Source of the DNA: an uncultured Methanosarcinales archaeon
GTDB taxonomy: Archaea; Nanobdellota; Nanobdellia; Woesearchaeales; GW2011-AR9
Assembly (NCBI GenBank): GCA_964344235.1
Contig: CAYFMJ010000001.1
Span: forward strand, 1 to 64,000
Length of the DNA: 64,000 bases
Reading direction: 5' to 3'
Part shown: positions 26,091 to 63,549 of the stretch, piece by piece
Position numbering within the stretch: the first letter of the stretch is position 1
Layout: every line of letters begins with the position of its first letter
Translations under genes and position numbers: made by a program
The notes under the pieces: model-generated
The model's database searches: none
Seen by the model: the letters and a program-made list of their open reading frames with translations, nothing else
Told to the model about the DNA's origin: nothing

Positions 26091-26187
26091 CCCACTCGAC
26101 AGGTATGAGTGAATCTTATAAGTCTGCAATACTCATTTTATCTCTCTTTGTTTTATTCCGGGAGCAAACAAAGAGGTGATAAAAATG
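26091..26187 (+). promoter_or_regulatory. Conserved LAGLIDADG leader cassette, copy 1 (CCCACTnGACA, TATA box, SD-sequestering hairpin)
   Basis: CCCACTCGACA 26091-26101; CTTATAA 26115-26121; stem CTCTTTGTTT 26144-26153 / AAACAAAGAG 26166-26175; GAGGTGAT-N4-ATG. Confidence 0.75.
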
Positions 26188-26829
26188 AAATTTAATGAAG
26201 ATTTGGCAGAGATCGTAGGGATTATGCTCGGCGATGGAGGTCTCCATCTGAACAAATCAAACAAATATAACTTAACTATTTCATCTGATAAAAAAGAGTT
26301 AGAGTACCTCGAATCTGTGAAATCATTGTTTACTGATTATTTCAAAAGTTATACATTTAGTATTTGGGAGTGTAAAGAGAAATTGTCGCTTGGCCATACC
26401 TCGGTGTTCGTGGGTGAGCAACTAATTAAGGCTGGCTTAAAGCATGGCAATAAGGTCAACAACAAAGTGCAGGTGCCAACATGGATTTTCTCAAATGAGC
26501 AGTTTTTAATCCGGTTGGTGAGGGGCATGTTTGATACAGATGGTTGTATCTACCGCAAATATGATCAATTTGCACAAATTCAGTTTAAATTCGGGTGTTT
26601 TGAAACTACAAAATCCCTTCACGATGTAATAAAAATTTTGAATTTTAATCCAACAGTAATTCAGAGGGAATTCAATAAATCTAAAGGATTCTATGCGTGG
26701 AAGTTCTACCTATGTCGACAAAGTGAGATTGATTCATTTTTTCAATCTATTAAGCCACGAAATCCAAAGCATGTTGAGAGATATAACAAAATAAGGAGTG
26801 GGGACGCTGGGATTCGAACCCAGATCTAA
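26185..26829 (+). CDS. Free-standing two-motif LAGLIDADG homing endonuclease
   Basis: LAEIVGIMLGDGG and RLVRGMFDTDGCI; VPTWI linker; the 3' end runs antisense into tRNA-Trp. Confidence 0.9.
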   Translation: MKFNEDLAEIVGIMLGDGGLHLNKSNKYNLTISSDKKELEYLESVKSLFTDYFKSYTFSIWECKEKLSLGHTSVFVGEQLIKAGLKHGNKVNNKVQVPTWIFSNEQFLIRLVRGMFDTDGCIYRKYDQFAQIQFKFGCFETTKSLHDVIKILNFNPTVIQREFNKSKGFYAWKFYLCRQSEIDSFFQSIKPRNPKHVERYNKIRSGDAGIRTQI

Positions 26830-26958
26830 GGCTTACCACAGAGAAGGTTTTTTCATCGCTTACGCTCAACCCTCCATTACTGGAGGCCCCTATATTGGTC
26901 AGTGTTTTAACACTTCTAGCCAGGATGTACGAAATTACTTTCTTTATACTACGTCCCC
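26799..26958 (-). tRNA. tRNA-Trp(CCA) with three introns (15/16, 22/23, 37/38)
   Basis: Acceptor GGGGACG/CGTCCCC, T-arm CTGGG-TTCGAAT-CCCAG; removing 26925-26943, 26895-26915 and 26834-26879 gives a canonical 74-nt tRNA (74+19+21+46=160). Confidence 0.88.
26834..26879 (-). ncRNA. tRNA-Trp intron carrying a minimal box D'/C' guide for C34 2'-O-methylation
   Basis: TGGAGG guide followed by TTGA, a GC-GTAA-GC hairpin and CGATGA; the +5 rule points to C34. Confidence 0.6.
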
Positions 26959-27010
26959 GTGAGTTTTGCAGAAAGAGAAGTTTTTTATTAAGCTTTTGTT
27001 TCGCAAGAAC

Positions 27011-28105
27011 ATGATTCACTTAGACGGTTCGTATGGAGAAGGCGGTGGTGCTTTAGTCCGCACAGCTCTGGCACTTTCTGTATTTACTGGAAAACCGTTT
27101 AGTGTGGATAAGATAAGAGCGGGGAGAAAGGTTCCGGGATTAAAACCGCAGCATCTGAAAGCGATTGAGGCGTTGAAAGAAATTTGTGGCGCTGAAGTTG
27201 GAGAAGTGGAGTTGGGTTCTATGACATTAGCGTTTACTCCAGGGAAGGTAAAGAAAGGAACATATACTATTGATATTGGGACGGCAGGAAGTATTACGTT
27301 GTTATTACAATCACTAATTCTCCTATGTATGTTTGCACCCGGAACTGTAACATTGCGAGTTATTGGAGGGACGTGTGGGAAGTGGCAGGCAGGCGTTGAT
27401 TATTTACAGAATATTCTGTTGCCATATCTTGAACGATTTGTGGAGAAAATTGAAATGAAGATTTTGAAGCGAGGGTATTATCCAAGAGGAGGTGGTGAGG
27501 TTGAGTTAAAGATTACACCGCGGTGGAAATTGAAAGATTTTGATTCTTATTCCGCACTGTTGGAAGAAGTGCGAGTGAAGACAGCGAAGATTGCATTGAG
27601 TGCGCAAGGCAAGTTAGAGCAGATACGAGGAGTGGTGAATGTTTCTTCCGAATTACAAGAGAAAGAAGTAGGAGAGAGAATTCAAAGAGTGTGTGAAGGG
27701 GATTTAAAAAAGTTAGGAGTGCCAGTAAATGTAAGAGTAGATTATGTTAATTCTCTAAGTGTTGGAGGAGAGGTTTTATTGTGGGGTGTGTTTAGTAATA
27801 ACGGACAGGTAGATTATGATAATCCCGTGTTATTAGGTGGGGATGCGTTAATTGAGAAAGGTAAGCGAAGTGAAGAGGTTGGAAAGGAGGCTGTTGCGGA
27901 ATTGTTAGAGGAAGTGGAGAGTGAAGCGGCTGTTGACGTACATTTAGCAGATATGTTGATTCCGTTTATGGGTTTGTTGTGTGGTTCTTCGATTGAGGTT
28001 AGTTCTGTTAGCGATCATGTTTTAACAAATATCTATGTGGTAGAGAAGTTTCTGGATGTAGGTTTTTCTGTTGAAGGGAAGAGAATTAGGGTTGAGAAGT
28101 GTTAG
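27011..28105 (+). CDS. rtcA: RNA 3'-terminal phosphate cyclase
   Basis: LDGSYGEGGGALVRTALALS, IRAGRKVPGLKPQHL, RGYYPRGGGEV, DVHLADML. Confidence 0.93.
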   Translation: MIHLDGSYGEGGGALVRTALALSVFTGKPFSVDKIRAGRKVPGLKPQHLKAIEALKEICGAEVGEVELGSMTLAFTPGKVKKGTYTIDIGTAGSITLLLQSLILLCMFAPGTVTLRVIGGTCGKWQAGVDYLQNILLPYLERFVEKIEMKILKRGYYPRGGGEVELKITPRWKLKDFDSYSALLEEVRVKTAKIALSAQGKLEQIRGVVNVSSELQEKEVGERIQRVCEGDLKKLGVPVNVRVDYVNSLSVGGEVLLWGVFSNNGQVDYDNPVLLGGDALIEKGKRSEEVGKEAVAELLEEVESEAAVDVHLADMLIPFMGLLCGSSIEVSSVSDHVLTNIYVVEKFLDVGFSVEGKRIRVEKC

Positions 28106-28923
28106 GTGATTTTCTTAAGGATAAAATTAACTTCGTTCATTTCACTTGAATCTGCAATAACAATATCGAATTTTTCTTTATACACAGGGAGTAACTTTTC
28201 AACATCTCTATTTAGAAAACCAATCTTTAGAATTGTATCGTGTGCGATTCCAGCGGCCATGCCTACGTCTGCTAAACTATCACCAAGGAGAATAACATTT
28301 GGTTTGTTTTGAATCTCTTGGAGGTATGGACTTTCTTGAATAGCATACTCGTGTTTATTTACAACTGTGATGAATTTGTCTTTTACTCCTGTTACTACGC
28401 CCATTTCATTGAATTTGTAAAAGTTAGAGATGATGTGGACGTTTGGAGTTAATAGGTTATTGTGTTTTAGAAACTCTTCAATGACATTACCGATACCTGC
28501 TGAGAAAATCAAAAGAGGAATGTTGTGTTTCGCAAGGGTTTCAAAGAACTCCGTTGCGCCACCCCGTAATTTGAGGTCGTTACTTCTGGCAAGGTCTTGG
28601 ATAACACCTTTATGCATGCCACTCTCCCGCATTAATTGGTAGTGGGATTCCCACCATTCCTGCATTTTCTGATAGCGTTCCTCTTCTGTGATGTCTGTAG
28701 AGATTTCATAAGGATAGTATTGATCAAATAATGCGTGTGCTTTTTCTGCGTACTCTGGAGTTAAATATTTGCCGTTACGAAGGTGCATATACACTGATTG
28801 TACTTTCAGTCCGTCAACAAAAGCTTTTGTTAGTGTTTTATCAAAATCTGCTACAACATGGAAATTCGTTTTTGTGAAAGCGTTGAGTTTCTCTTTGGCC
28901 TGTGGTTGGAAATGCGTAGTCAT
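28102..28923 (-). CDS. HAD 5'-nucleotidase of the cN-III (NT5C3) family, cN-IIIB-like
   Basis: ADFDKTLT, YYPYE, MQEWW, IFSAGIGNVIE, IISN, LLGDS, KIGFLN. Confidence 0.88.
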   Translation of the reverse strand: MTTHFQPQAKEKLNAFTKTNFHVVADFDKTLTKAFVDGLKVQSVYMHLRNGKYLTPEYAEKAHALFDQYYPYEISTDITEEERYQKMQEWWESHYQLMRESGMHKGVIQDLARSNDLKLRGGATEFFETLAKHNIPLLIFSAGIGNVIEEFLKHNNLLTPNVHIISNFYKFNEMGVVTGVKDKFITVVNKHEYAIQESPYLQEIQNKPNVILLGDSLADVGMAAGIAHDTILKIGFLNRDVEKLLPVYKEKFDIVIADSSEMNEVNFILKKIT

Positions 28924-29002
28924 TTCGCTTGATTAGTAGATAAATTTTATATAGGTTTAGTTTGTATTAATTGTTATACATTAAAAACAGGGGGTTTTAA
29001 CT

Positions 29003-30142
29003 ATGATTTTGAAGAAATATATGATTGTTGTTCTTGCACTCGTTGCGTTAGTGCTCATTGTAGGATGTGGTACTGATAGCGGAGAGGTGCAAGTTGTTGA
29101 GAAAGGAAGTGGATCAGACAAGATAATGTTTGGTTACCTTGGACCACTTACTGGAGATGTTAGTTTTATCGGTCAACAAAACAAAGCGGCCGTAGAACTT
29201 GCAGTAGAAGAAATTAACAATGCTGGGGGGATCAATGGGAAGATGATTCACGTTGTCTATGAAGATGGACGTTGTAGTGCAAAGGATGCTGCTAGCGCAG
29301 GAAGTAAGTTAATTAGTATCAATCGAGTTGATTACATTATCGGAGGAGCATGTTCCGGGGAAACACTGGCTGTCGCTCCGCTTGCTGAAGCGAATAAAGT
29401 AATCATGATGTCACCAGTATCATCTAGTCCTGACGTAACATATGCAGGAGATTATATCTTTCGAGATTATGTGAATGACAACGATGCGGGAAGAATCGTA
29501 GCTGAGAAAATGTACGAAGCCGGCCACAAAGAGGTTGCACTTTTGTTTAGTTTAAACGATTGGGCGCAGGCAATTTCGGAAGTATTCAAGAAGGAGTTCG
29601 AAGCGCTTGGTGGAACTGTAACGTTTGAAGAATCATTCGTACAAGGTTCAAAAGATTTGCAGTCCGTTGTTACAAAAGTAAAAAGCAGCGGAGCAGATGG
29701 AGTGGCGTTCTTTGAGTACACACAAGGGGCTGTTGCGTTCTTTAAGCAGAAAGAAGAATTAGGCCTAGATGTTCCAGTGTACGGAGCAGACACATTAAAC
29801 GACCCAGAGATTGCTGAAGGAGCAGGCGTAGGATTTGATGGAACGAAGTATGTTATCCTTAAAGATGCATATTCTGATGAGTTCAAAGCAAAGATTGCAG
29901 CAAAGACTGGAGAAAGTGACGTCAAAATCGGAACTGCAAATTCCTATGATGCTGTTAAGATTCTAGCAAAAGCAATCTCAGAAGTTGGCGATGATACGAC
30001 AAAAGTAAAAGAATGGTTGTATAATATGCCACTATATGATGGAGAGTCTGGCTCTGTTGCTTTTGACGAAAATGGAGACTTAGCAGACGCAGAGTTCTCA
30101 CTGTGGGAAGTACAAAACGGAGAATCTGTCGTTATTGGATAA
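29003..30142 (+). CDS. livK: Branched-chain amino-acid ABC transporter substrate-binding lipoprotein
   Basis: Lipobox IVG-C22; GPLTG, AVEEINNAGGINGK, YEDG, YDAV. Confidence 0.9.
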   Translation: MILKKYMIVVLALVALVLIVGCGTDSGEVQVVEKGSGSDKIMFGYLGPLTGDVSFIGQQNKAAVELAVEEINNAGGINGKMIHVVYEDGRCSAKDAASAGSKLISINRVDYIIGGACSGETLAVAPLAEANKVIMMSPVSSSPDVTYAGDYIFRDYVNDNDAGRIVAEKMYEAGHKEVALLFSLNDWAQAISEVFKKEFEALGGTVTFEESFVQGSKDLQSVVTKVKSSGADGVAFFEYTQGAVAFFKQKEELGLDVPVYGADTLNDPEIAEGAGVGFDGTKYVILKDAYSDEFKAKIAAKTGESDVKIGTANSYDAVKILAKAISEVGDDTTKVKEWLYNMPLYDGESGSVAFDENGDLADAEFSLWEVQNGESVVIG

Positions 30143-30216
30143 TCTTTTCTTTTTTTCTTTTTATTTTACTTCTGATATATAATAAACATTAAAAATAGTG
30201 GCTGTTTCTCTGATCT

Positions 30217-31101
30217 ATGGGATTATTTGCACAGTTATTGGTTAATGGTTTAATTGCAGGATCAATCTACGCATTAGTAGCGTGTGGTTTCTCGCTAATT
30301 TACGCAACAAATAGGTTTATGCACTTTGCCCATGGAACGAGTGTCGCTGTTGGGGCGTACTTGTTGTTAGCGTTGTTTAAGTTGTTTGGTCTGCCGTTTT
30401 ATTTAGCATGCATTTTGACAATAATCTTATCTGGGTTTTTGGGGGTTGCGTTGTATCAATTAGTATATGTCCCTCTGCAAAAGAAGAAAGCGTCAAATAT
30501 TATTTTATTGATTGCAAGTATTGGCATATTGATTTTATTTGAGAACATTCTGCAGATCATTTTCGGACCAGATACAGAAACGATTGGCTATATCAAAATT
30601 GCACAAGGGATCTCTGTCCTAGGAGCTTTCATTACCCCATTACAAATTGTGATTATTGTCGTGTCGTTGGTGTTGTTGGTTGCTCTTTATCTGTTCATGA
30701 AGAAAACGAAACTCGGCAGACATATGCGGGCTGTCGCGGATAATAAAGAGTTAGCGAGTGTCGTGGGAATTAATCATAAACGCATTGCGTATTACTCATT
30801 CTTTATTGGATCTGCATTAGCAGGGATTGCGGGTATTTTGATTGGTTTGGAACAAAACGTGGAACCAGTTATGGGGACAATGTTAATTGTGAAAGGGTTT
30901 ACAGGAGCGGTTATTGGAGGTGTAACATCTGTCCCTGCTTCAATTGTGGGAAGTTATCTTCTTGGATTGGTGGATAATTTTGGCGTCTGGTATTTGCCAT
31001 CAGGATATAAAGATGCGATTGCGTTTGGATTACTGTTCATATTTTTATTGTTTAAACCGACAGGTATATTTGGAATAAACAAGGGGATTAAAGATGTTTG
31101 A
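30217..31101 (+). CDS. livH: Branched-chain amino-acid ABC permease
   Basis: QLLVNGLIAGSIYALVACGFSLIY, FAHG, TKLGRHMRAVADN. Confidence 0.93.
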   Translation: MGLFAQLLVNGLIAGSIYALVACGFSLIYATNRFMHFAHGTSVAVGAYLLLALFKLFGLPFYLACILTIILSGFLGVALYQLVYVPLQKKKASNIILLIASIGILILFENILQIIFGPDTETIGYIKIAQGISVLGAFITPLQIVIIVVSLVLLVALYLFMKKTKLGRHMRAVADNKELASVVGINHKRIAYYSFFIGSALAGIAGILIGLEQNVEPVMGTMLIVKGFTGAVIGGVTSVPASIVGSYLLGLVDNFGVWYLPSGYKDAIAFGLLFIFLLFKPTGIFGINKGIKDV

Positions 31102-31966
31102 TGCGTTTATTATTCATTTATTGATCTTAATTGGCATTTATGTAATCTTAGCGGTAAGCTTGAATGTTGCAATTGGATATACGGGATTACTAAATTTAGG
31201 ACACATTGCATTTTTTGGCATAGGAGCGTACACATCGGCATTGTTAACGAAAGCGGGAGTGCCGTTTGTCATAGCGTTTATTGTAGCAGGATTGTTTACC
31301 ACGGTGTTTGGCTATGTGCTAGTATTAGCAACCGGAAAGTTGAAAGGAGATTATCTTGCATTAGCAACGTTAGGATTTAATTTTGTGATTTATTCTGTAT
31401 TGTTAAATTGGGTTTCCCTCACTAGGGGGCCGTTAGGCATTCCGGGAATTGATAAACCGTCTTTCTTGGGGGTGGCAATTAGTTCGAATACGGGATACTT
31501 GGTGTTTGTGATTATTATTACAGTAATAGCTGTGTGGTTAATGCATCGAATTGTTTCTTCGCCATTCGGCAAGTTGCTACAAGCAACACGGGATGATGAA
31601 GTTGGGTTGAGAGTATTAGGAAAAAATACGTTCAAATTAAAGTGGAAAGCAATGATGATTTCAGCGTTCTTTGCAGGCATTGCCGGAAGTTTATTTGCAC
31701 ATTATATTTCATTCATCGATCCGACGTCGTTTAATTTGAAAGAAATTATTTTGATTTTAACAATTGTAATTGTCGGTGGAGCAGCATCGATTAAAGGCAG
31801 TATTATCGGAACGTTTGTGATTATTTTATTACCGGAAGCGTTACGGTTCTTAGCGTTGCCAAGTTCGATCCTAGGACCTGCACGGCAGGTGGTGTATGCA
31901 GTTATTTTATTGGCTATCTTGCTCTATAGACCACGAGGAATCTTTGGGAGGGTTGATTTAGTATGA
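31094..31966 (+). CDS. livM: Branched-chain amino-acid ABC permease
   Basis: GYTGLLNLGHIAFFGIGAY, KGDYLALATLGF, LTRGPLG. Confidence 0.93.
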   Translation: MFDAFIIHLLILIGIYVILAVSLNVAIGYTGLLNLGHIAFFGIGAYTSALLTKAGVPFVIAFIVAGLFTTVFGYVLVLATGKLKGDYLALATLGFNFVIYSVLLNWVSLTRGPLGIPGIDKPSFLGVAISSNTGYLVFVIIITVIAVWLMHRIVSSPFGKLLQATRDDEVGLRVLGKNTFKLKWKAMMISAFFAGIAGSLFAHYISFIDPTSFNLKEIILILTIVIVGGAASIKGSIIGTFVIILLPEALRFLALPSSILGPARQVVYAVILLAILLYRPRGIFGRVDLV

Positions 31967-32697
31967 CTGCTCTCGAAGTAAAGGAAGTGTACAAAGCGTT
32001 TGGTGGAGTGAAAGCGTTGAATGGTTGCAGCTTTGCCGTGGAGAAAGGAAAAATTACTGCATTAATTGGACCAAACGGATCTGGGAAGTCAACTATTTTT
32101 AATGTTATCTCTCGCATACTGAAAGAAGATGCAGGCACAGTTGTGTTGCAGGGTAATGATGTGACTGCGGTGAAAGATTTTGCAGTGGCACGGCAAGGAG
32201 TTGCGAGGACATTTCAGCAGGTTCGCTTGTTCAAGAACTTAACGATTCAAGAACATTTAGAAATTGCGATGGATGAACAGGATGAGGGGATGTTGAAAAA
32301 TTTATTTCGAAGAAAGCGTGGTGGATTGCAGAGGATTAGAGAAGTGTTAGCAATTGTAGGATTAGATAAACCGCTTTCCACATACGCAACTGATTTATCC
32401 TACGGACAGCGGAAGTTGTTAGATTTAGCAATTGCCATTGCCAAACCACATTCAGTATTGATGTTAGATGAGCCAGTAGCTGGAGTGAATCCAGCGTTAC
32501 GGCAGGAGATTAAGAGAATTCTGCGAGACTTACATGCGAATGGTGAAACGATTTTAGTGATTGAACACGATATGAATTTTGTGATGGACTTAGCAGAATA
32601 CATTTTTGTGCTTGACCAGGGCAAAGTGATTGCAGCAGGAAAACCAAAGACAATTCAAAATAACAAAAAGGTATTGAATGCGTATCTAGGAGAGTAG
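31963..32697 (+). CDS. livG: Branched-chain amino-acid ABC ATPase
   Basis: GPNGSGKST, RTFQ, LSYGQRK, LDEPVAG, IEHDM. Confidence 0.94.
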   Translation: MTALEVKEVYKAFGGVKALNGCSFAVEKGKITALIGPNGSGKSTIFNVISRILKEDAGTVVLQGNDVTAVKDFAVARQGVARTFQQVRLFKNLTIQEHLEIAMDEQDEGMLKNLFRRKRGGLQRIREVLAIVGLDKPLSTYATDLSYGQRKLLDLAIAIAKPHSVLMLDEPVAGVNPALRQEIKRILRDLHANGETILVIEHDMNFVMDLAEYIFVLDQGKVIAAGKPKTIQNNKKVLNAYLGE

Positions 32698-32698
32698 A

Positions 32699-33409
32699 AT
32701 GTTAACGATTACAGGATTAAATGCTGGGTATGGGGAATTACATATTTTGAAGGATGTAGGAATTACTGTGAAAGCAAAACAAATGGTAGCGCTGATTGGA
32801 CCAAACGGCGCTGGAAAGTCAACGGTGTTGAAATCGATTTTCAACATTGCTAAGGTATTGGGTGGGAAGATTGAGTTTAATGAGAAAGACGTTACCGGTT
32901 TAAGAACACATGAGTTGTTAGGAGTAGGGATTAGTTATGTGCCGCAAGGAAGAATTAATTTTTCTGAGTTGACTGTATTAGAAAATTTAGAAATTGGTGG
33001 AGATATGATTAAAGATAAAGCAGTAATGCGGGAGCATTTAGAGAAAGTATTTGAGAAATTGCCAATCCTACGAGAGAAGCAGGATGATTTAGCATTTTCA
33101 TTAAGTGGAGGACAGCAGCAGATGTTAGCGCTAGGAAGGGCGTTGATGCAGAATCCACAATTGTTGTTATTAGATGAACCAACATTAGGGTTGAGTCCAA
33201 AGTTGCAGAAAGAGTTGTTCGCGACGTTACGTCGGTTACGAGATGAGGAAGGACTAGCGATTTTAATTGTGGAGCAGAATGCGAAGAAAGCGATAGAAGC
33301 AGCTGATAGGACGTATTTGTTAGAGAATGGAAAAGTTGCTTTGGAAGGAGGGAAAGAGATTGTGAAGAACCCTAAGATTAAAAGTATCTATTTAGGTGGG
33401 CATTATTAA
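32699..33409 (+). CDS. livF: Branched-chain amino-acid ABC ATPase
   Basis: GPNGAGKST, YVPQGR, LSGGQQQMLALGRAL, LDEPTLGLSP. Confidence 0.94.
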   Translation: MLTITGLNAGYGELHILKDVGITVKAKQMVALIGPNGAGKSTVLKSIFNIAKVLGGKIEFNEKDVTGLRTHELLGVGISYVPQGRINFSELTVLENLEIGGDMIKDKAVMREHLEKVFEKLPILREKQDDLAFSLSGGQQQMLALGRALMQNPQLLLLDEPTLGLSPKLQKELFATLRRLRDEEGLAILIVEQNAKKAIEAADRTYLLENGKVALEGGKEIVKNPKIKSIYLGGHY

Positions 33410-33446
33410 GAGAAAATTTATAAATAACTCGGGTTCTGCAGTGAGT

Positions 33447-33617
33447 ATGGAAGCAAAATTATGTCAAGCGACAAAAAAGCGAATTGAAAACGATTCGGGG
33501 GCAGTAACGTTCATGTGTCCACAGTGTGGTAAGCATGAAATTGTGCGGAGTTCATTTGCTCGAAAGAATGCAATCCCGTACACTTGTCCTGAATGTGGGT
33601 TTACAGGTCCTAATTAG
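33447..33617 (+). CDS. Zinc-ribbon protein of the DUF1610/HVO_2753 family
   Basis: FMCPQCG...YTCPECGFTGP; the usual archaeal position upstream of EF-1beta. Confidence 0.85.
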   Translation: MEAKLCQATKKRIENDSGAVTFMCPQCGKHEIVRSSFARKNAIPYTCPECGFTGPN

Positions 33618-33628
33618 AGGTGAATTTT

Positions 33629-33907: not shown

Positions 33908-34027
33908 ATGGCGAGAAGTGAACTGATTTCTATTCTAGTAGAAAAGTCTCAATCCGGTGAACGGAGAGATTTTAGAGCTGCTTCTGATTTATCTATAAGG
34001 AGTTTCTATAAAGGCGGGGGAGTTAGT

Positions 34028-34207: not shown

Positions 34208-34257
34208 TCGTTTTCAGAGATAATATAATTGCAATAAGTATAAAAAGCTGGCGTTCT

Positions 34258-50904: not shown

Positions 50905-52123
50905 CATCGTCAAAAATTACTGCTGAGCCTTTCACACGGGGGAGATGATCGATCTCTTGCTCTAAGCCATGACGCATATAACTTTGCGTTAATTGACCAA
51001 GGGCGTCGGTGTCGAGTTTAGCAGTTAGACGATGCGCCAAGACCGTATCTGCTTGTGTCATAACATCAGTATGAATTTTTCCAGGTTGCTGTGATGCTAA
51101 AATGAGAGAAATTCCGGGTTGTCTTCCTTCTCTGAGAATTGTGATTAAAGGATCTGTAGCAGCAGTTTTGCCATCTTTGGGGAGCAGTTCATGCGCTTCA
51201 TCAATTGCAACCCAAACAAGGGGTTCAGTTAACTTAGATTCGTTTTCCTTTGAGAAGTAATGCATCGCAGCGTCGACTGTTTTGAATTCCTCTGTTTTTC
51301 TAGCAAGCATCCTCTGGTTGAATAATGTCCGGCAAATTAAACCCACTACAAGCGCTTTAATTTCCCAGCCAGACGCTTGCGTTGCGTACGGAGAAACGTC
51401 TAAGACAGTTACTTGGCCACCCCGCACAATATCTTTAAGAGGTGTTCCTTTCTCAGAGAAGATTTCCCAGCCTTGTGCTTTTTTGAATTCATTCATCACA
51501 ACACTTCGAACCACAGGGTCACTTTCATGATCGGCATGCACTGTGTTGATGAGAGCTTGCATGGAATAACTTACGCCACGTTTCTTTAGATCCTGAACTA
51601 TTCTCGTGATGAGAACTCCTTCCGCAGAGTTTGGGTCAATGGAAAATGCGGTACACCAATCGTGTGGGCCAACGTCGATAGGTCTTAGAGAAAATGGAAA
51701 ATCCGTAGGGATGCCTTGTTCTTGGTATTTGTGGTAAAATCCTTCTGGAGTGTAAATTTTAACATCAAGTGGTTTTGGTTGTAATCCCCATTTTTGTAAT
51801 AAATCTGCATCTTGATAATTGGGATATTTCATCGTCCAATAAATGCCCATGGTATCGAGAAGGATGATAGAAAGGTTTTGTTTGACTTCTTTTGGAAGAT
51901 CAGCTAAGCCTTCAGCGATAGCGCCCATAGTATAGGATTTTCCGGAACCCCTTTTTCCCACGATGAATGTGACGTGTGCACCGGCGACATCTAGATAAAT
52001 TGGGTTGGATAAAGAAGTGGTTTGGCCCATTTTGACGTATTGCTTGCCAAGAAAGATTGTCCCTTCTTTGCCGAATTTTTGTACATCCTCTTTAGAGCGG
52101 CCAATAATAACATCAAACACCAT
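50774..52123 (-). CDS. HerA/FtsK-superfamily ATPase (DUF87 type)
   Basis: GKRGSGKSYT Walker A, WVAIDEAH Walker B, REGRQPG, SQQP. Confidence 0.85.
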   Translation of the reverse strand: MVFDVIIGRSKEDVQKFGKEGTIFLGKQYVKMGQTTSLSNPIYLDVAGAHVTFIVGKRGSGKSYTMGAIAEGLADLPKEVKQNLSIILLDTMGIYWTMKYPNYQDADLLQKWGLQPKPLDVKIYTPEGFYHKYQEQGIPTDFPFSLRPIDVGPHDWCTAFSIDPNSAEGVLITRIVQDLKKRGVSYSMQALINTVHADHESDPVVRSVVMNEFKKAQGWEIFSEKGTPLKDIVRGGQVTVLDVSPYATQASGWEIKALVVGLICRTLFNQRMLARKTEEFKTVDAAMHYFSKENESKLTEPLVWVAIDEAHELLPKDGKTAATDPLITILREGRQPGISLILASQQPGKIHTDVMTQADTVLAHRLTAKLDTDALGQLTQSYMRHGLEQEIDHLPRVKGSAVIFDDANERIFPVQVRPRLTWHGGSSPMAVKPKKQFEKTLEKLNEPNV

Positions 52124-55825: not shown

Positions 55826-55862
55826 GCAAGACATTTAAAGCTGATTCTTTTTTATTACTTCT

Positions 55863-56570
55863 ATGGTAACCCTAACATATCAAGAACGATTCAAAACAGC
55901 CAAAGGAGTATTTGATGAGTTTACTGAAAGAACATTATTTACATTAGAGAAAAAAGGGTTGTTTGACGAGTTAGTTTCTCCATTGAAAGTTGGAAAGGAA
56001 AGTAACGTGTTCGTTGCAGTGAAGGACGGTAAGAACGTTATTGTCAAAATTTATCGAATGCAAAATGCTGATTTTAAGAGAATGTTTGAATATATTAAAC
56101 AGGACAAACGGTACGATTTTTTACAAAATAAGAGAAGGCAGATTATTTTAGCATGGGCGCAGCGGGAATATAAGAATCTGATGAGAGCAGAAAAAAGTGG
56201 CGTGAAAGTTCCTACACCATTAGGATGGAATAATAACATTATTGTGATGGAGCTTATTGGAAAGGAAGAAGTTGCACCGCCATTAAAAGATGCATATCCA
56301 GCATATCCGTATCAGTTCCTGCAGGATGTGGTTACGGATATGAAGAGATTGTATAAAGGAGGGTTAGTGCATGGAGATTTATCTTCATTTAATATCCTGA
56401 ATAATGACGAAAAACCAGTGTTGATTGATTTCTCCCAAGCAACTCTTTTGAAAACACCGAATGCAGAAGAATTGTTGAAGCGAGATATTAAGAATGTGTT
56501 GCAATTTTTCAAGAAGTTAGGCGTGGAAGCGGATAAAGAGGAAATATATAAAAAAATAACCGAGAAATAA
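55863..56570 (+). CDS. rio1: RIO1 serine/threonine kinase
   Basis: GKESNVF, VKIYR, AQREYKNL, VHGDLSSFNIL, IDFSQ. Confidence 0.93.
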   Translation: MVTLTYQERFKTAKGVFDEFTERTLFTLEKKGLFDELVSPLKVGKESNVFVAVKDGKNVIVKIYRMQNADFKRMFEYIKQDKRYDFLQNKRRQIILAWAQREYKNLMRAEKSGVKVPTPLGWNNNIIVMELIGKEEVAPPLKDAYPAYPYQFLQDVVTDMKRLYKGGLVHGDLSSFNILNNDEKPVLIDFSQATLLKTPNAEELLKRDIKNVLQFFKKLGVEADKEEIYKKITEK

Positions 56571-56576
56571 GAGAGA

Positions 56577-57122
56577 ATGGAAACGCATGATCAACATTCA
56601 GAGTTTACGTACGAAGTAAAAATTCCAGAAGAGCGGGTTGCTGTACTGATTGGAACGGATGGAAGTACAAAGAAGTTGATTGAAGAGGAAACAGGAAGTG
56701 CGTTAGATATTACTGCAGAAGGAGACGTGGTCATTTCAGGGGAAGATGGTTTAGGATTGTATACAACCAAAGAAATTGTGAAAGCTATTGCCCGGGGATT
56801 CAATCCAAAAGTGGCGTTGTTATTGTTGAAGCAAGATTATGCGTTTGAATTGATTGACATGAAAGATATTGCAGGGAAGAGTAAGAATACCTTGCAACGG
56901 TTAAAAGGAAGAGTTATTGGGAAAGGCGGAAGAGCCAGAGAGGAGATAGAGAGATTAACAGATTGTCACGTGACTGTGTATGGGAAAACCATTGGGATTA
57001 TTGGAGAGACAGTGCAAGTGGGGTTATCTCGGCAAGCGGTAGCGATGTTGTTACAAGGAGCCATGCATAAGACTGTGTATAAATTCTTAGAGAAGAAAAA
57101 GAAAGAGATGTTATTTGGGTGA
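56577..57122 (+). CDS. KH-domain rRNA-processing protein Dim2/Pno1
   Basis: RVAVLIGTDG, AIARGF, RLKGRVIGKGG, GAMHKTVY; adjacent to rio1. Confidence 0.92.
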   Translation: METHDQHSEFTYEVKIPEERVAVLIGTDGSTKKLIEEETGSALDITAEGDVVISGEDGLGLYTTKEIVKAIARGFNPKVALLLLKQDYAFELIDMKDIAGKSKNTLQRLKGRVIGKGGRAREEIERLTDCHVTVYGKTIGIIGETVQVGLSRQAVAMLLQGAMHKTVYKFLEKKKKEMLFG

Positions 57123-57440
57123 ATCTTTAGCCCTATATGCATCAAAAATTATTTCAAGCTTGCTTTTAGCGTCTCTTAATGCAGTTAATTGTTCGCTTAT
57201 TGCGAGACTTTCTTCCATGCCCGGTACACTTGCTGCTCTTTCATAGCAACGAAGTAAGCTGTCGACATCAGATTTTCTTGGATCGTACCACATTCTAAAG
57301 TGGGCAGGTTTTTGATCAAGAATTTCTTGAACATCAGGCCTTGCGAGATATTGCCGTCTTTGTTCAGCAGCGTAGTCCGCTTCACTACAGACTAATTCTT
57401 CCTCTTCTTCTTCCAGAAATTGTCCATGAGGTTCTTCCAT
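57111..57440 (-). CDS. Hypothetical protein
   Basis: Protein-like ORF; start placed at the ATG at 57440 (uncertain). Confidence 0.45.
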   Translation of the reverse strand: MEEPHGQFLEEEEEELVCSEADYAAEQRRQYLARPDVQEILDQKPAHFRMWYDPRKSDVDSLLRCYERAASVPGMEESLAISEQLTALRDAKSKLEIIFDAYRAKDSPK

Positions 57441-57523
57441 GGAGTATTGTGTAGGATCATTTGAGATATAAAGATTTCTGTGATGAAAGGTAGGTTTAAA
57501 TAACTGGTCCAATTTGTTAAGAT

Positions 57524-58705
57524 ATGTTTTTTAAGAGGTATAGAAGTTTCAATATTAAATCTAAGAATATTATTGTTCTGTATATAGCAACATTCTTCTT
57601 TGGTTTGACTTTTTTTGCGCCAATCTGGGCGTTATACATTGAAGAAAGTCTTTTTTCCGTCGTAAATGTTGCTGTGATCATAGCAATACAATCTCTCACC
57701 GCCGTTGTATTAGAAGTGCCAACAGGTGCAATCGCAGACCTTTTTGGCAGAAGGAACACAGTTATTCTTGGCGCATTTGGTGTATTGGCCTCAACCATTT
57801 TCCTATACATTGGAGGCAGTATGGTAATGTTTATTCTTTATGCAATCTTAAGTGCTGTTGGTGGGGCATTGGCAAGTGGGGCTGATGATGCTCTTATTTA
57901 TGATACGCTAAAATCTGAAAGAAAAGAGAAACATTACAAACATATTATTGGAACATTAGGAGCATTGTGGCCATTAGGGGCGGTCATTGGATCCCTTGGT
58001 GGAGGATACCTGGCGAGTGTCTCTCTTTCCTTTCCTGTATTGATCACGATAATTCCATTTGCTCTTGGTTTTCTTCTGACGTTTTTCCTCAAGGAACCGA
58101 AATATCACAAAGAAAAAGAACATGGTGTATTAAAACAGATGCATGTTTCTTGCATGGCAATTCTGAAAAATAGACAAATTATTCTGTTAATGGCGGCAGG
58201 ATTTCTTTTCTGGGGATTAGGAGAATCAATCCATTTGTTGAAATCAATCTATTTTCTGTTTAAAGACATCCCAATTGTACAGTTCGGGTATATTTTTGCT
58301 TTAACATTTGGCTTTTCATCACTTGGACATTATAGTTCAGCGTTTTTAGCGGATAAATTCGGAGAGAAAAAGATGTTAATTATGACTTCCCTAATTGATC
58401 CCCTGTTAATCATTATATCAACTTTAACATGGGGATTGTTTTCTGCATTGTTTTTGATCTTACCTTCAATTTCGTTTGGTATTAGAAACCCGATCCTAAA
58501 CCACATGCTCAATAAAGAGGTAAGTTCACGGAGGCGGGCAACGGTTCTTTCCATTAACAGCCTTATGTGGCAATTTGGAAAAGTCATATTTGCACCGTTT
58601 GTTGGTTGGTTGGCAGATTTATACTCCATAAATACAGCGTTCATGATCACAGGAGCATTGATGCTAAGCGGGTTTTTTGTATTATTAGGTCTAAAGCAGA
58701 AGTAG
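57524..58705 (+). CDS. MFS transporter
   Basis: [33 protein letters not shown]; ~12 TMs. Confidence 0.92.
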
Positions 58706-58751
58706 CAATACCACCAAAACCATTATAAATTACCCTCAAAATATTTTTACT

Positions 58752-60431
58752 ATGGTTAAAAAATCAGCGGAAGAGTTAGCGAAAAAACATAGAGAAATCT
58801 CTATCGCTGAGTTTTTTGAGAAGAATAGACACTTATTAGGATTCGATAATCCTCGACGAGCGTTAATGACTGCAGTGAAAGAAGCTGTTGATAATGCGTT
58901 AGATGCGTGTGAGGAAGCACGAATTCTGCCTGAGTTGAATGTAGAGATCATTCAGCTTTCTGACACACGATTTAGGATGGTTGTGGAAGATAACGGCCCG
59001 GGAATCATAAAAAAGCAAGTGCCTAAAATATTTGCAAAGTTATTATATGGTTCGAAATTCCATAAATTATCCGCGACACGGGGGCAGCAGGGGATTGGAA
59101 TTAGTGCGGCAGTATTGTATGGGCAATTAACGACAGGAAAGCCGGCAGTGATTGTTTCTAAAACAGGAAAAGGGAAGAAGGCACATATGATCCAATTAAA
59201 AATTGATACGCAAACCAATAATCCAAAGATCTTAGCGGATGATGAAGTAGAATGGGGTGAGAAAGAACACGGAACGAGAATTGAAATTGACATGGATGGT
59301 GCGTATAATAAAGGAAAACAGTCCATTGATGAGTATTTGAAAGAAACTGCTATCGTTAACCCTCACTGTACGATTATTTACACAGATCCAAACGCGGAAC
59401 AGATTATTTTCCCACGAGCGGTTGAAGTTCTGCCACCAGAACCAACGGAAATTAAACCACACCCATATGGCGTGGAGTTAGGAATGTTAATGAAAATGTT
59501 GCAGAGGACTGATGCGAAGACATTGCAGCAGTTTTTAACAACAGAATTTGTACGAGTGGGAGCAGGAACAGCTAAACGAATCTGTGAGAACGCTTCTTTG
59601 TTACCGCGAACAAAGCCGAAGAAGATTAGTAGGGAAATGGCAGAGCAGTTGTACAAAGGAATTCAGAAAACAAAAATTATTGCACCGCCAACAGACTGTA
59701 TTAGTCCCATTGGAGAAGAGCAGTTAGAAAAAGGGTTGCGAAAAGAAATTAATGCAGAGTTTTATTGCGCGACCACGAGGCCGCCGACAGTGTATAGAGG
59801 GAACCCATTCATTATTGAAGTGGCGTTAGCGTATGGTGGAGAGCAGGACGGCGATAAAACTGTTCGGATCATGCGATTTGCAAATAGAGTGCCGTTAATG
59901 TATCAGCAAGGGGCATGTGCTACGACGAAATCCATTGGGCAAACCTCATGGCGATCGTATGGTTTACAACAAAGCAGGAACTCTTTACCTTCTGGGCCTT
60001 GTACGTTGGTTGTTCATATGACGTCTGTTTGGGTACCGTTTACATCGGAAGCGAAGGAAGCGTTAGCGCATTATGAAGAAATTATGAAAGAGATTAAGTT
60101 AGCGCTGCAAGAATGTGGAAGAAAGTTGGGAAGTTTTGTGAATAAGAAAAAGCGAATTAAAGATGAAGCGAAGAAGCGAAGTTATATTGAAAAATATATC
60201 CCTCACGTTGCAGAAGGATTGAAAGAAATTTTAGGATTAGATGATGTGAAAGTGAAGAAGATTGAGGATGATTTATGTGAGATTCTCGAACACACCCGAG
60301 GCGAGTTGGAAGAGATTACAGTTGACAACCCAGATTATGATCCAGAATTAGCGAAGATTGGAAAGGAAGAGAAAAAAGTTGAGGATACAGAAGAAGAGAA
60401 GAAGGAAACAAAACAAACGACATTAGCGTAA
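58752..60431 (+). CDS. top6B: DNA topoisomerase VI subunit B
   Basis: [41 protein letters not shown]. Confidence 0.97.
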
Positions 60432-60432
60432 A

Positions 60433-61527
60433 ATGGTTAAGAAAAAAAATACAGTTGTAGAGAAAATTGCAGATGTTGCACAAGGGATTTACAATACTAT
60501 CCGGAAGATTAAACAGCCAGAGTTAGAGATGCCTATTCGTTCTTTGAGTAATGTTGCATATAACGAGAAAGAGGGGTATTTTAAGATCTTAAGTAAGGTT
60601 AAGACGCGGACACTGACTGCTTCTACGATTAAGACATTTGCACAGACATTACGGATGATGGGTTTGTCAAAGGAGCTTGTAAATGATAACGAGATTGCTA
60701 CTAAAAGAGAGGCGTATTACTTAAGTAAAAATTGGGGCGATGCGCGATTTAAAGAGCAACCAGAATCGGATTCGGTTATGGATGATATTGAAGCGATGAT
60801 GGGGGTTAACAGAGAACAAATTGGCTTTATTCCTGGTGAGAAAGGAGGAGCTGTCGCGGGTGAACTTACAGTTGTTGATGTTGACAGTGAAACGGGTGAG
60901 AAACTTGAGATAGATTGTACAAAGTTTGGGTCAGGAGCGTATTCTATTCCATCAACAGTTGAACATCTTAAATTTAAAACTAACGCTAAGTTTGTTCTTG
61001 CAATTGAAACAGCGGGTATGTTTGAACGGTTAAATAAGCATAAGTATTGGAAGCAAGCTAAATGTATTTTGATTGCAATGTCAGGAGTTCCTACAAGAGC
61101 AACAAGAAGGTTCATGAGAAAGCTTGCGGATGAACAGAAATTACCGGTGTATGTGTTTACAGACGGCGATCCATACGGATATTTTTCAATTTACAGAACA
61201 CTAAAAGTTGGATCTGGAAATGCTGCACATATTAATAAATACTTTTGTGTGCCAAATGCGAAGTTTATTGGTGTAACACCACAGGATATTGAAGATTATA
61301 AATTGCCAACGCATCCTTTGAAAGATGTTGACTTTAAGAAGATTAAAGATGTTCTGAAAAACGATCCGTTCTGTCAGCACCACAAAGAATGGCAAAGAGC
61401 GTTGAAGAAAATGGCGAAAATGAAAGTTAGGGTAGAGCAGCAGGCATTCTCAGCTCATAGTTTAAATTTTGTAATAGAGAAGTATCTTCCTGAGAAAATT
61501 AAGAATAAAAAAACGTGGTTGCCTTAG
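60433..61527 (+). CDS. top6A: DNA topoisomerase VI subunit A
   Basis: TKREAYY catalytic Tyr, EQPESD, IETAGMF, FTDGDPYG, EQQA. Confidence 0.97.
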   Translation: MVKKKNTVVEKIADVAQGIYNTIRKIKQPELEMPIRSLSNVAYNEKEGYFKILSKVKTRTLTASTIKTFAQTLRMMGLSKELVNDNEIATKREAYYLSKNWGDARFKEQPESDSVMDDIEAMMGVNREQIGFIPGEKGGAVAGELTVVDVDSETGEKLEIDCTKFGSGAYSIPSTVEHLKFKTNAKFVLAIETAGMFERLNKHKYWKQAKCILIAMSGVPTRATRRFMRKLADEQKLPVYVFTDGDPYGYFSIYRTLKVGSGNAAHINKYFCVPNAKFIGVTPQDIEDYKLPTHPLKDVDFKKIKDVLKNDPFCQHHKEWQRALKKMAKMKVRVEQQAFSAHSLNFVIEKYLPEKIKNKKTWLP

Positions 61528-61566
61528 GAGCAAAAATATTTTATATTTAGTTTGATCAGTTATTGT

Positions 61567-62265
61567 ATGGAGAGGGTGCCACTTGCTGTTGACATTGATG
61601 AGACAATCGTTTATCTCTTACGGTTTTTTCTAGAGTATTACAATAATAAAAATGGTACCGCCTTTTCGGAGGAGGGTTTTTGTTCATACAGGTGGTGGGA
61701 AATTTTAAGGATATCAAAAGAACAAGCATATGCAGAAGCAGTAGAGTGGGCGGCTTGGAAAACACGTGATGAGGGAAGGCCGGTAAATGGGTACTTTGGA
61801 ATCCAGTTCGTGGAAGGTGCTGAACAAGGTCTCGATTTGTTGTCTCGTTATTATCAGCTTCATGCGATATCGGATCGCAGTCCTGTGCTTGACCCAGATA
61901 CGTTCAATATTTCTTGTGCATTGTATGTTGAAGAAGGGGAAGGGACTTATTTCCCTGACATTCCTGTTGGTGATACTGGAGATCTTATTCTACCAACAAG
62001 TCAGATATACTTAACAAAAGAATGGGGGATGCCAAAGGCCGAGATTTGCCATATGGTTGGCGCGAAAACAATTATTGAAGATAATGGAGACAGGGCTATC
62101 GAATGCGCTGAAGAAGGAGTTGAAGTTCTTTTACTTGAAAAACCATGGAATAAGGGCGTAGAAAGAGAAAATATTACGAGAGTTAGTGGTTGGCAAGAAG
62201 TATGTGATCTTCTAACTCCAAGCTCGATTAGATTTCCGTACCCTTACGAAGCACGTTATCTATAA
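61567..62265 (+). CDS. HAD 5'(3')-deoxyribonucleotidase-like (NT5C family)
   Basis: AVDIDETI, ISDRS, KAEIC...IIEDN, KPWN, RVSGWQEV. Confidence 0.75.
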   Translation: MERVPLAVDIDETIVYLLRFFLEYYNNKNGTAFSEEGFCSYRWWEILRISKEQAYAEAVEWAAWKTRDEGRPVNGYFGIQFVEGAEQGLDLLSRYYQLHAISDRSPVLDPDTFNISCALYVEEGEGTYFPDIPVGDTGDLILPTSQIYLTKEWGMPKAEICHMVGAKTIIEDNGDRAIECAEEGVEVLLLEKPWNKGVERENITRVSGWQEVCDLLTPSSIRFPYPYEARYL

Positions 62266-62270
62266 AAAAT

Positions 62271-62630
62271 TCATGCAACGCAACTACATTGTTTGTAGCC
62301 GTTGTTTAATGCTGTGTTTTTTGATGCAAATACCTGTTTATTTTTTGGTTTGATATTTTTAGCGAACGCACAATTCTTTGCATGGAACTTTGATGCTGTC
62401 TTTGAAGCAACAAATTTCTTTGCTGTTTTCGTTGCTGTGCGTGCAACTCTTGTATAGCGTTTTCGTGCTTTTTTCAAGCTAAGGGTTGCTAACTTCTCTG
62501 TTAGTTCTGCATTCCGTAGCTGTAATTTACGTACTTCATCATATAATACGTTAATATGATCAAATAATGTGTAAATATCCTGCTTCGCTAACTGAAATGA
62601 GCGAATTGTGTTTAATTGGTGTTGATTCAT
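62271..62630 (-). CDS. Coiled-coil protein with a C-terminal Ada-like metal-binding domain
   Basis: FVASKTASKFHAKNCAFAKNIK...NNGYKQCSC. Confidence 0.7.
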   Translation of the reverse strand: MNQHQLNTIRSFQLAKQDIYTLFDHINVLYDEVRKLQLRNAELTEKLATLSLKKARKRYTRVARTATKTAKKFVASKTASKFHAKNCAFAKNIKPKNKQVFASKNTALNNGYKQCSCVA

Positions 62631-62739
62631 TGTAGGTAGTAAAGAGAGGGTTTATTTATAAACCTTTTGTTTATTTATCACTGTAAAGTGACGTCTTTTT
62701 TTGGAAAGGTTTAAATGGGAGTTGAGGCGGGAGGGAAGA

Positions 62740-63330
62740 ATGAGAAAAATAGTGGTAGTTATGATAATGATGCTGAGTGTTATAGTAGCATCGTGTGGAG
62801 GAGGAACAATGAAAAACGCAACATTTGAAACGTCAATGGGAGAGTTTACAGTTGAATTATATACAGATAAAATGCCGATTACAGCGGGTAATTTCGTAAA
62901 GTTAGCAGAAGAAGGCTTCTACGACGGGACAAAATTTCATAGAGTAATTGGGCCAATCAAATCGCCGCCACATGGGTTTATGATTCAGGGTGGAGATCCG
63001 TTAACGAAAGATGATAATTTACAACATGCCTGGGGCACTGGCGGGCCTGGGTATGCGATTGAAGATGAGTTTGTGGATGGTTTAAGTAATTTGAGAGGAA
63101 CGTTAAGTATGGCTAACTCTGGACCAAATAGCGGGGGGAGTCAGTTCTTCATTAACCTGAATGATAACACATTTTTAGACTTTGACAAACCGCCAATGCA
63201 GAGTAAACACCCGGTGTTTGGAAAAGTTGTGAGTGGTATGGATATCGTTGAGAAGATTGGTAATGTTGGAACGGACGGTATGGACAGACCATTAGAACCA
63301 GTTGTGATTACGAAGATTACAATAGAATAA
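62740..63330 (+). CDS. Cyclophilin-type peptidyl-prolyl isomerase with a lipoprotein signal (alternative start at 62809)
   Basis: FHRVI, FMIQGGDP, GTLSMANSGPNSGGSQFFIN, HPVFGKV; VAS-C19. Confidence 0.92.
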   Translation: MRKIVVVMIMMLSVIVASCGGGTMKNATFETSMGEFTVELYTDKMPITAGNFVKLAEEGFYDGTKFHRVIGPIKSPPHGFMIQGGDPLTKDDNLQHAWGTGGPGYAIEDEFVDGLSNLRGTLSMANSGPNSGGSQFFINLNDNTFLDFDKPPMQSKHPVFGKVVSGMDIVEKIGNVGTDGMDRPLEPVVITKITIE

Positions 63331-63363
63331 TTTAAAAGTAGTTTCTTTTATTTGACACTATAA

Positions 63364-63438
63364 GGGCCCGTAGTTTAGCCTGGATAGAACGACAGCCTTC
63401 TAAGCTGTAGGTCGGGGGTTCGAATCCTCCCGGGCCCA
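63364..63438 (+). tRNA. tRNA-Arg(TCT)
   Basis: GGGCCCG/CGGGCCC, ACAGC-CTTCTAA-GCTGT, GGGGG-TTCGAAT-CCTCC. Confidence 0.96.
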
Positions 63439-63450
63439 CTTCTTCCACTC

Positions 63451-63549
63451 CCCACTAGACAACCGTCAGCAGGGCTTATTAATTAATGATCTTCTAATTT
63501 CAGCACTCTCTGTTTTATTCTTGGTGTAAACAGAGAGGTGATTGAAATG
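63451..63549 (+). promoter_or_regulatory. Conserved LAGLIDADG leader cassette, copy 2
   Basis: CCCACTAGACA 63451-63461; CTTATTAA 63475-63482; stem CTCTCTGTTT 63506-63515 / AAACAGAGAG 63528-63537; GAGGTGAT-N4-ATG. Confidence 0.75.

Follow-up and report, generated by a model that had tools for sequence, protein, structure and literature searches.

In bacteria, the SOS box and its regulator LexA provide one operator common to repair genes and to mobile or selfish elements, which thereby make use of the signal for damage. In the Sulfolobales, an archaeal damage regulon is defined by the DNA-damage-responsive element 5'-ANTTTC-3', which is short, conserved, located upstream of the core promoter and bound by Orc1-2 (PMC6061795). 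Hairpins at the ribosome-binding site (RBS) are documented for I-TevI, I-TevII, I-TevIII, segB, Aeh1 mobE and seg43(25) of Aeromonas phage 25; in these T4-type systems the homing-endonuclease gene has a stable hairpin right at its consensus Shine-Dalgarno (SD) sequence and a promoter that coincides with the hairpin or lies close to it (PMC2988022). T4 SegB is in addition encoded by a free-standing endonuclease gene within a tRNA cluster and has its target in the tRNA region (PMC2988022, Table 1). Archaeal LAGLIDADG enzymes of the I-DmoI type are monomers of ~200-250 aa with two motifs, each carrying an acidic residue. Described here are two LAGLIDADG genes, with their promoters, leaders and neighbouring tRNA genes, in the window, a stretch of 64,000 nucleotides (positions 1 to 64,000 of contig CAYFMJ010000001.1, assembly GCA_964344235.1) from an archaeon of the Woesearchaeales. 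The genes are

26185..26829, plus strand: free-standing double-motif LAGLIDADG gene, 214 aa (paralogue-family profile, 231.8 bits)
63547..64000, continuing to contig position 64233 beyond the window, plus strand: free-standing LAGLIDADG gene, 228 aa (Pfam LAGLIDADG_3, E = 1.5e-10 for the full protein)

As in the T4-type systems, a hairpin adjoins the SD of genes of the homing-endonuclease type, and the T4 analogy drawn in an earlier, sequence-only reading of the window is apt. The closest geometry is that of seg43(25), in which the base of the hairpin abuts the RBS (PMC2988022). Unlike the T4-type genes, those described here have an archaeal TATA-type promoter and encode LAGLIDADG rather than GIY-YIG or HNH proteins, their core stem covers three of the eight SD bases, and their leader is common to many unrelated paralogues across genera; a second promoter is known only on the T4 side. 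Compared with SegB, many paralogues lie beside many different tRNAs on a cellular chromosome, and cleavage of tRNA genes by their products is putative. The promoter element shares with that of the Sulfolobales its position upstream of the core promoter and its conservation, but its sequence is unrelated, the module is far longer (a ~30 nt box before the TATA) and rigidly spaced, its gene set comprises Hef, Lhr, UvrB and RadC together with nucleases, and a role in damage is proposed from gene content; ANTTTC/Orc1-2 is the only comparable archaeal damage regulon and is unrelated. A putative operator that joins repair genes with mobile or selfish genes is also the feature shared with SOS/LexA, here in the setting of archaeal transcription machinery and with a likeness resting on gene content (Hef, Lhr, UvrB, RadC, HRDC, Bro-N). 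The I-DmoI type differs in that the present genes are free-standing, with their own promoter, and do not reside in an rRNA intron or intein. Operator-promoter regulons, homing-endonuclease genes under RBS-hairpin control and homing genes that stand free next to tRNAs are all kinds already known. Full-text literature searches for Woesearchaeota/DPANN returned no publication describing the box, its regulon or the leader; what stands out is the three layers together in a lineage (DPANN) in which regulation is otherwise almost unknown.

The explanation favoured here, with rather more confidence than doubt, combines a regulon promoter, an SD hairpin and tRNA-linked mobile nuclease genes. In the promoter layer, a 44-nt module would be a candidate regulator-binding site fused to the B recognition element (BRE) and TATA box. 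It would serve, on the host side, Hef, Lhr, UvrB, RadC, an HRDC protein, DUF4186, a YprB-like exonuclease and Xer-type recombinases and, on the selfish-type side, all free-standing LAGLIDADG genes, Bro-N/ORF6N genes and a Dcm methylase. Since the nuclease genes carry the promoter along, they would probably be co-expressed with the recombination machinery that homing needs, possibly upon induction by DNA damage. In the translation layer, four LAGLIDADG genes of this genome have a short leader in place of the leaderless form seen in about half of the regulon, and a hairpin that rises from the inferred transcription start, with its 3' arm running into an 8-nt SD, most likely damps a potentially toxic nuclease. 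In the location layer, mobile homing-endonuclease genes would land beside tRNA genes, their likely cleavage or anchor sites. The rigid module on Hef, Lhr, UvrB and RadC and on every stand-alone homing-endonuclease gene offers a testable candidate for a DNA-damage regulon in DPANN; if the account is true, selfish nucleases have here connected themselves to a host regulon, and the finding extends the hairpin control of T4 endonucleases to archaea and to LAGLIDADG genes.

By sequence criteria (two acidic motifs and a family-model match), both genes qualify as LAGLIDADG homing-endonuclease genes. The 26185 protein scores just under the Pfam cut-offs (LAGLIDADG_2, 24.1 bits against 25; LAGLIDADG_3, 20 bits against 22.5), and PF14528 is above its cut-off for the 63547 protein and most paralogues. 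The acidic residue is kept in both motifs (motif 1, ..G(D/E)G; motif 2, D-x-(D/E)-G) in nine of ten aligned proteins, including these two. Orthologues of the 26185 protein with 56-58% identity occur in two other genomes (G107 and G109), and those of the 63547 protein in G120 (56% identity) and, at the same tRNA-Arg locus, in G013. The two proteins were earlier thought to be alike at the motif level only; they are distant but evident homologues, aligning with 27.7% identity over 148 aa (E = 1.7e-7).

The promoter modules of the two genes are

26083..26126, plus strand: operator-promoter module copy 1 (position weight matrix match of 38.5 bits, among 25 discrete genome copies), with box core CCCACTCGACA at 26091-26101, 13 nt, and TATA-like CTTATAA at 26115-26121 (CTTATAAG at 26115-26122)
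63443..63486, plus strand: operator-promoter module copy 2 (position weight matrix match of 43.6 bits), with box core CCCACTAGACA at 63451-63461, 13 nt, and TATA-like CTTATTA at 63475-63481 (CTTATTAA at 63475-63482)

Both upstream regions read exactly as had been noted: CCCACTnGACA, 13 nt, CTTAT(A/T)A, a 10-bp stem with a 12-nt TATTC loop, and GAGGTGAT-N4-ATG. In the genome examined (G000; 37 contigs, 1.19 Mb in total), CCCACTnGACA occurs 19 times, 18 of them in the same flanking context. A gapless 44-nt position weight matrix (PWM) spanning box and TATA, built from the flanked copies, gives 25 genome matches of 33-60 bits, with the range of 10-33 bits empty and no match in a shuffled genome. 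The module consensus is roughly (A/G)CCACTnCCCACTnGACAACCACnGGTAGAnnTATAAA, of which CCCACTnGACA is the core, and the box motif of the regulon can also be written CCACTGGACA. Box and TATA are separated by 13 nt in all 25 copies, every one of which is oriented toward a gene. Twelve of the 25 have an ATG 22-30 nt past the first T of the TATA box, as in leaderless mRNAs, and because of this distance the transcription start is placed at approximately TATA+23 to +30. A lone CCCACTGGACA at 21880-21890 on the minus strand, within a 1546-aa open reading frame (ORF; 17432-22072), is without TATA or module context and is thus a chance match.

Twelve of the 25 module copies precede LAGLIDADG genes, and these are every free-standing LAGLIDADG gene of the genome; searches of the genome with Pfam PF14528 and with paralogue profiles found no free-standing LAGLIDADG gene without the module. 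Module-less LAGLIDADG matches are limited to long frames (contig 4, 25824-26471, 1461 aa; contig 1, 171896-172408, 1185 aa; contig 14, 18783-19421, 689 aa), and the domains inside these 689-1461-aa ORFs are presumably inteins. The other targets are a Hef helicase-nuclease (DEAD, Helicase_C, ERCC4 and HhH domains), RadC, DUF4186, a zinc-ribbon/HRDC protein, two tyrosine (Xer-type) recombinases, an Lhr-type helicase after a 176-nt leader and five small or unknown ORFs, while one copy drives a non-coding leader before a weak tRNA-like match (contig 2, 8137-8180, minus strand). None of the five unknown regulon proteins has a Pfam match, and no regulator candidate emerged from these scans.

The same box is found in relatives. 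A strict pattern, CCCACTNGACAASNNNNNNTAR, is present in 14 of the 24 other genera of the family and in none of the 16 other families of the order, and its reversed control gives zero everywhere. Among the genera sampled, the box lies at the leaderless distance upstream of ~13 of 28 Hef orthologues and 9 of 27 RadC orthologues. A further sample of 20 box sites from six other genera, not chosen by gene, drives four LAGLIDADG genes, two tyrosine recombinases and genes for Lhr, UvrB, Bro-N, ORF6N, a C5 DNA methylase (Dcm) and an RNase_H_2 (YprB-like) exonuclease. Orthologues of the small ORFs of the present genome recur there as well, namely those of 42 aa (three sites), 45 aa (one site) and 88-92 aa (three sites, with a conserved ~105-nt leader). 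These gene contents suggest that the box is a putative operator or activator site of a regulon with the theme of repair, recombination and mobilome, which appears to extend family-wide through these Woesearchaeota-type DPANN archaea.

The sequence-only reading had considered CCCACTnGACA a possible operator or the end of a mobile element. Occupied tRNA-Arg loci have the module whereas empty ones lack it (see below), so that it travels with the gene, and two Xer-type recombinase genes carry it, as might be expected of an element end or of a homing or recombination site of the cassette. Against this stand the fixed 13-nt distance to the TATA of 25 genes, with the box always pointing at the gene, the presence of the box before conserved, syntenic host genes (Hef, RadC, UvrB and Lhr) in many genera and the absence of a second copy, inverted or direct, bounding the cassettes. 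An element end is very improbable; because the same box precedes repair genes here and in other genera, it is better described as the operator-promoter of a regulon.

Downstream of the module, both genes have a short leader with the following features:

26144..26175, plus strand: leader hairpin copy 1, 10-bp stem and 12-nt loop (-10.7 kcal/mol, z -2.1; covariance model R1, 67.3 bits), in which CTCTTTGTTT at 26144-26153 pairs with AAACAAAGAG at 26166-26175 around the loop TATTCCGGGAGC
26173..26180, plus strand: SD GAGGTGAT copy 1, followed by N4 and the ATG at 26185 (predicted unpaired probability 0.14)
63506..63537, plus strand: leader hairpin copy 2, arms 63506-63515 and 63528-63537, loop TATTCTTGGTGT (-13.9 kcal/mol, z -3.4; R1, 68.8 bits)
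63535..63542, plus strand: SD GAGGTGAT copy 2, ATG at 63547 (predicted unpaired probability 0.26)

Both 12-nt loops begin with TATTC, and the stems begin 29 or 31 nt past the C of CTTAT(A/T)A and differ by one compensatory T-A to C-G change at stem position 5. All 8 nt of the SD GAGGTGAT are complementary to the 3' end of the 16S rRNA (...GGATCACCTCC, C3 93935). The covariance model R1, built from three leader copies, has exactly four real matches in this genome (26185, 63547, 65738 on the minus strand and contig 5 38357), all with the module upstream and a LAGLIDADG gene downstream. In the family it matches 22 of 113 other genomes, or 16 of 58 genera when this genome's is counted; in the other families of the order, only four weak matches were found in ~139 genomes. 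The leader form in the family is a hairpin with a stem of 9-10 bp, GAGGTGAT, N4-5 and ATG. Nearly every family match is followed by a LAGLIDADG gene, and several sub-families are represented; the exceptions are two copies of a 42-aa ORF and four weak matches that are probably false. A motif widespread before unrelated genes, which the sequence-only reading had named as counter-evidence, is what the promoter half proves to be, since it also precedes Hef, Lhr, RadC and others; the hairpin half is confined almost entirely to LAGLIDADG genes.

The compensatory change and the GAG of the SD in the 3' arm, both noted before, are present, and the covariation holds in 32 sense-strand R1 matches: 97.3% of cells are standard pairs, none of 500 shuffles is as good, and seven of the ten stem pairs show changes on both sides (27 cells). 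Pairing drops to 52-74% when the partner is slid by 1-3 columns. Among wobble cells, six G-U favour the sense strand, and five A-C (one clade) would be G-U on the antisense strand. The loop is variable in sequence and length, which argues for an RNA structure and not for a protein-binding palindrome. When the 94 GGTGA-N3-9-ATG sites of the genome are ranked by folding energy, the four leaders take ranks 1, 2, 8 and 13, and the arrangement is therefore not a general habit of SD-led genes. Rfam gave only chance-level matches to the hairpin, and at the gathering score only two tRNAs.

With few exceptions, the 32 copies have the GAG of GAGGTGAT within the core stem. The predicted ensembles add 2-4 pairs upstream of the stem that cover GTG(A), giving a mean unpaired probability of the SD of 0.13-0.26, and translational damping is the most likely function of the hairpin by these folding models. 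An alternative is that the hairpin is a 5'-terminal stabilizer of the mRNA against 5'-to-3' exonucleases of the aRNase J/aCPSF2 type, with a strong SD replacing leaderless initiation. The stem does begin at TATA+28 to +30, the position of the ATG in the leaderless genes under this promoter, GTGAT is outside the core stem and unpaired, and neither the sequence nor the length of the loop is constrained. However, the stem always ends within the SD (CTC pairing with GAG) instead of a few bases upstream, the predicted accessibility of the SD is low, and the leaders of two other LAGLIDADG genes carry unrelated hairpins that bury the start codon, pointing to occlusion of the initiation region. This stabilizing role is accordingly considered unlikely, if worth keeping in mind.

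The stem base, at TATA+25 to +30, falls inside the inferred start window (TATA+23 to +30), which raises a second alternative, a T4-like switch between two transcripts. Read-through transcripts from the upstream tRNA or gene would be closed, those started at the box would begin inside the 5' arm and be translatable, and synthesis of the protein would be limited to times of regulon activity. I-TevI, segB and mobE are documented to work in this way (PMC2988022), copy 2 is without a T-run between tRNA-Arg and the module, and a start 3 nt inside the stem lifts the predicted unpaired probability of GGTGAT from 0.16-0.34 to 0.35-0.79. On the other side, the start is itself placed only from ATG distances, the shortened transcripts still hold seven of the ten stem pairs, and relatives with a 150-210-nt leader have the hairpin far from the promoter. 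Such a switch is quite doubtful, and translational repression by a hairpin over the initiation region is preferred to both alternatives.

The two start-codon hairpins belong to contig 2 ~142254-142300, where TTGTTCATC pairs with GATGAACAA (gene 142289), and contig 1 ~269790-269815, where CATATTTC pairs with GAAATATG (gene 269812). Both fit initiation-region occlusion as a common theme.

The sequence-only reading described a single cassette of ~95 bp, and the comparison of paralogues and orthologues indicates that promoter, leader and ORF are instead separable. In this genome, eight of the 12 LAGLIDADG genes lack the hairpin, five of them being leaderless, but the box is present in all 12 and covariation among the hairpins is strong, so that the promoter half of the proposed cassette is general and the hairpin half is not. 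The four hairpin-bearing proteins are only 27-30% identical to one another and no closer to one another than to hairpin-less paralogues. The 63547 orthologue has a long leader with hairpin in G120 and a box with leaderless start in G013; the 26185 orthologues (56-58% identity) have the hairpin with a different, fully compensated stem; gene 11175 of contig 6 is leaderless here and has 57%-identical orthologues with the hairpin. Finally, the box copies at contig 8 1904 and contig 1 381735 (module at 381735-381778) are near-identical through the SD and then lead into different small ORFs. These cases show that ORFs and leaders have been recombined behind a common promoter, and the cassette is modular rather than one fixed 95-bp unit. 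An identity comparison of cassettes and proteins by gapped global alignment was left unused, since its shuffled baseline was 69% and its maximum 82%.

In relatives, 16 of 21 LAGLIDADG-linked hairpin leaders score at least 10 bits with the module PWM. In these, the distance from the end of the module to the ATG is 57-64 nt, as in the present genome, or else 149-212 nt, in which case a further structured segment intervenes. A 'type B' upstream region was at first taken for a second promoter in relatives; this was rejected, as the box-TATA lies 149-212 nt upstream of the ATG in nine of 14 loci, and type B is best read as a longer leader inserted between promoter and hairpin. It is not present in this genome. 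The extra conserved segment of ~100-150 nt between box promoter and SD hairpin (L035, L036, L042, L057-L059 and L176) contains a palindrome of its own that covaries (AAAACTTTT...AAAAGTTTT or AAATTCTTT...AAAGAAATTT), and one of its blocks is similar to GAGTTTCGCTAGACT.

Each of the two genes lies beside the 3' end of a tRNA gene, as had been seen:

63364..63439, plus strand: tRNA-Arg(TCT), landing site of copy 2 (ARAGORN and Rfam, 68.5 bits), ending 4 nt before module copy 2
26800..26958, minus strand: intron-bearing tRNA-like gene of 159 nt, with acceptor stem GGGGACG/CGTCCCC (perfect 7 bp) and T arm CTGGG-TTCGAAT-CCCAG

The last ten codons (30 nt) of the 26185 ORF overlap the 3' end of the tRNA-like gene. 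The latter is missed by ARAGORN and reaches only 15.7 bits with the Rfam tRNA model, presumably owing to several introns; brute-force removal of one intron followed by ARAGORN gave 2661 mutually inconsistent calls and no consistent identity. With intron-allowing ARAGORN calls combined with a scan for acceptor stem plus T arm (23 tRNA or tRNA-like genes), such a gene is found no more than 150 nt away from seven of the 12 LAGLIDADG cassettes and is overlapped by four of these, compared with a chance expectation of 0.28 on average and at most four in 5000 permutations. Other regulon genes show no such adjacency (0 of 11 within 150 nt of a tRNA). In relatives, a T arm adjoins ten of 20 hairpin cassettes; it is often convergent with the ORF and overlaps the ORF end.

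The tRNA-Arg locus was followed through 29 other genera, with a 209-aa gene at 62701-63330 (for which peptidyl-prolyl isomerase-like, PPIase-like, is a working label) and tRNA-Arg(TCT) as anchor. It is empty in at least eight genera, where the tRNA is followed by unrelated genes and no module. Where occupied, it holds one of three LAGLIDADG families: that of the 63547 orthologue (G000/G013), a hairpin-bearing one (G071, and G069 and G070) and a third (G067) that sits on the opposite side of the tRNA. This pattern is expected for free-standing homing-endonuclease genes that repeatedly invade beside a conserved target, for which T4 segB, sitting in and cutting a tRNA region, is the nearest precedent. 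The adjacency and the presence or absence by genus indicate that the genes are mobile, tRNA-anchored free-standing endonuclease genes, in agreement with the mobility suspected earlier. The empty and occupied tRNA alleles are concrete substrates for finding new LAGLIDADG specificities, cleavage of the tRNA gene being the activity they might reveal.

The proteins could also be domesticated host factors, such as DNA-repair nucleases or tRNA-gene-associated regulators, that are no longer selfish. All 12 are wired into the host regulon, orthologues persist across genera at 56-58% identity and in two cases again beside a tRNA, and the contig 6 12148 member has a degenerate second motif and a resolvase-type helix-turn-helix (HTH). 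A domesticated family would nevertheless sit uneasily with a patchy presence in which the tRNA-Arg locus is empty in most genera and holds different families in others, with paralogues as divergent as 27-30% identity, and with catalytic residues kept as in active homing enzymes. Domestication is judged improbable, and mobile homing-endonuclease genes remain the preferred reading.

The tRNA linkage also allows the question of whether homing endonucleases shape tRNA genes, perhaps including their many introns. In a bolder version of the account, an SOS-like DPANN repair regulon would have had its promoter captured by a swarm of tRNA-targeting LAGLIDADG genes, so that the nucleases would be produced just while break repair is active in the host, with the hairpin as a second brake and multi-intron tRNAs as the counterpart in an arms race, the introns breaking up the target sites of the nucleases. 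This extension is speculative and, taken whole, unlikely. By gene length, ~6 of 7 tRNAs beside LAGLIDADG genes and ~11 of 16 elsewhere look intron-bearing, i.e. most either way.

Several observations weigh against the three-layer account. Of the orthologues sampled, approximately half of those of Hef and two-thirds of those of RadC are without the box, so that membership of the regulon is fluid. For the hairpin, the covariation alignment was fitted to R1 itself, which inflates the pairing figures, and one clade has an A-C mismatch in mid-stem. The core stem takes up only three of the eight SD bases, fuller masking needs the 2-4 extra pairs, which are not universal, and a start 3 nt inside the stem would free GGTGAT to the extent given above. 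Five LAGLIDADG genes are not beside any detected tRNA, and the tRNA annotation is incomplete, many tRNAs here having several introns.

A few further products of the module deserve mention. Box-driven transcripts at contig 3 ~51870-52040 and contig 2 ~7990-8137 (both minus strand) have a common structured leader, GGCCAAGARAGGCC, followed by AAAAGCAA and a hairpin; that on contig 3 precedes the Lhr helicase gene and that on contig 2 the weak tRNA-like match. Neither these leaders nor the non-coding leaders L030 and L031 have a match in Rfam. PHROGs and NCBIfam gave no match for two 85-aa proteins and a 190-aa protein under the module, and PHROGs none for two small module-driven ORFs. Small ORFs of 39-42 aa (contig 8, 1979-2098) and 41 aa (contig 1, 381810-381935) lie behind the near-identical box-plus-SD leaders, and in relatives the box also precedes orthologues of the contig 8 ORF (L164, L171, L181, L049 and L052) and of the contig 1 ORF (L165). 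An 85-aa protein with an FRAGAISATVW motif (contig 1, 165683-166078) is encoded behind a box and a ~100-nt leader, and has 88-92-aa orthologues with equally long leaders in three genera (L168, L175 and L182).

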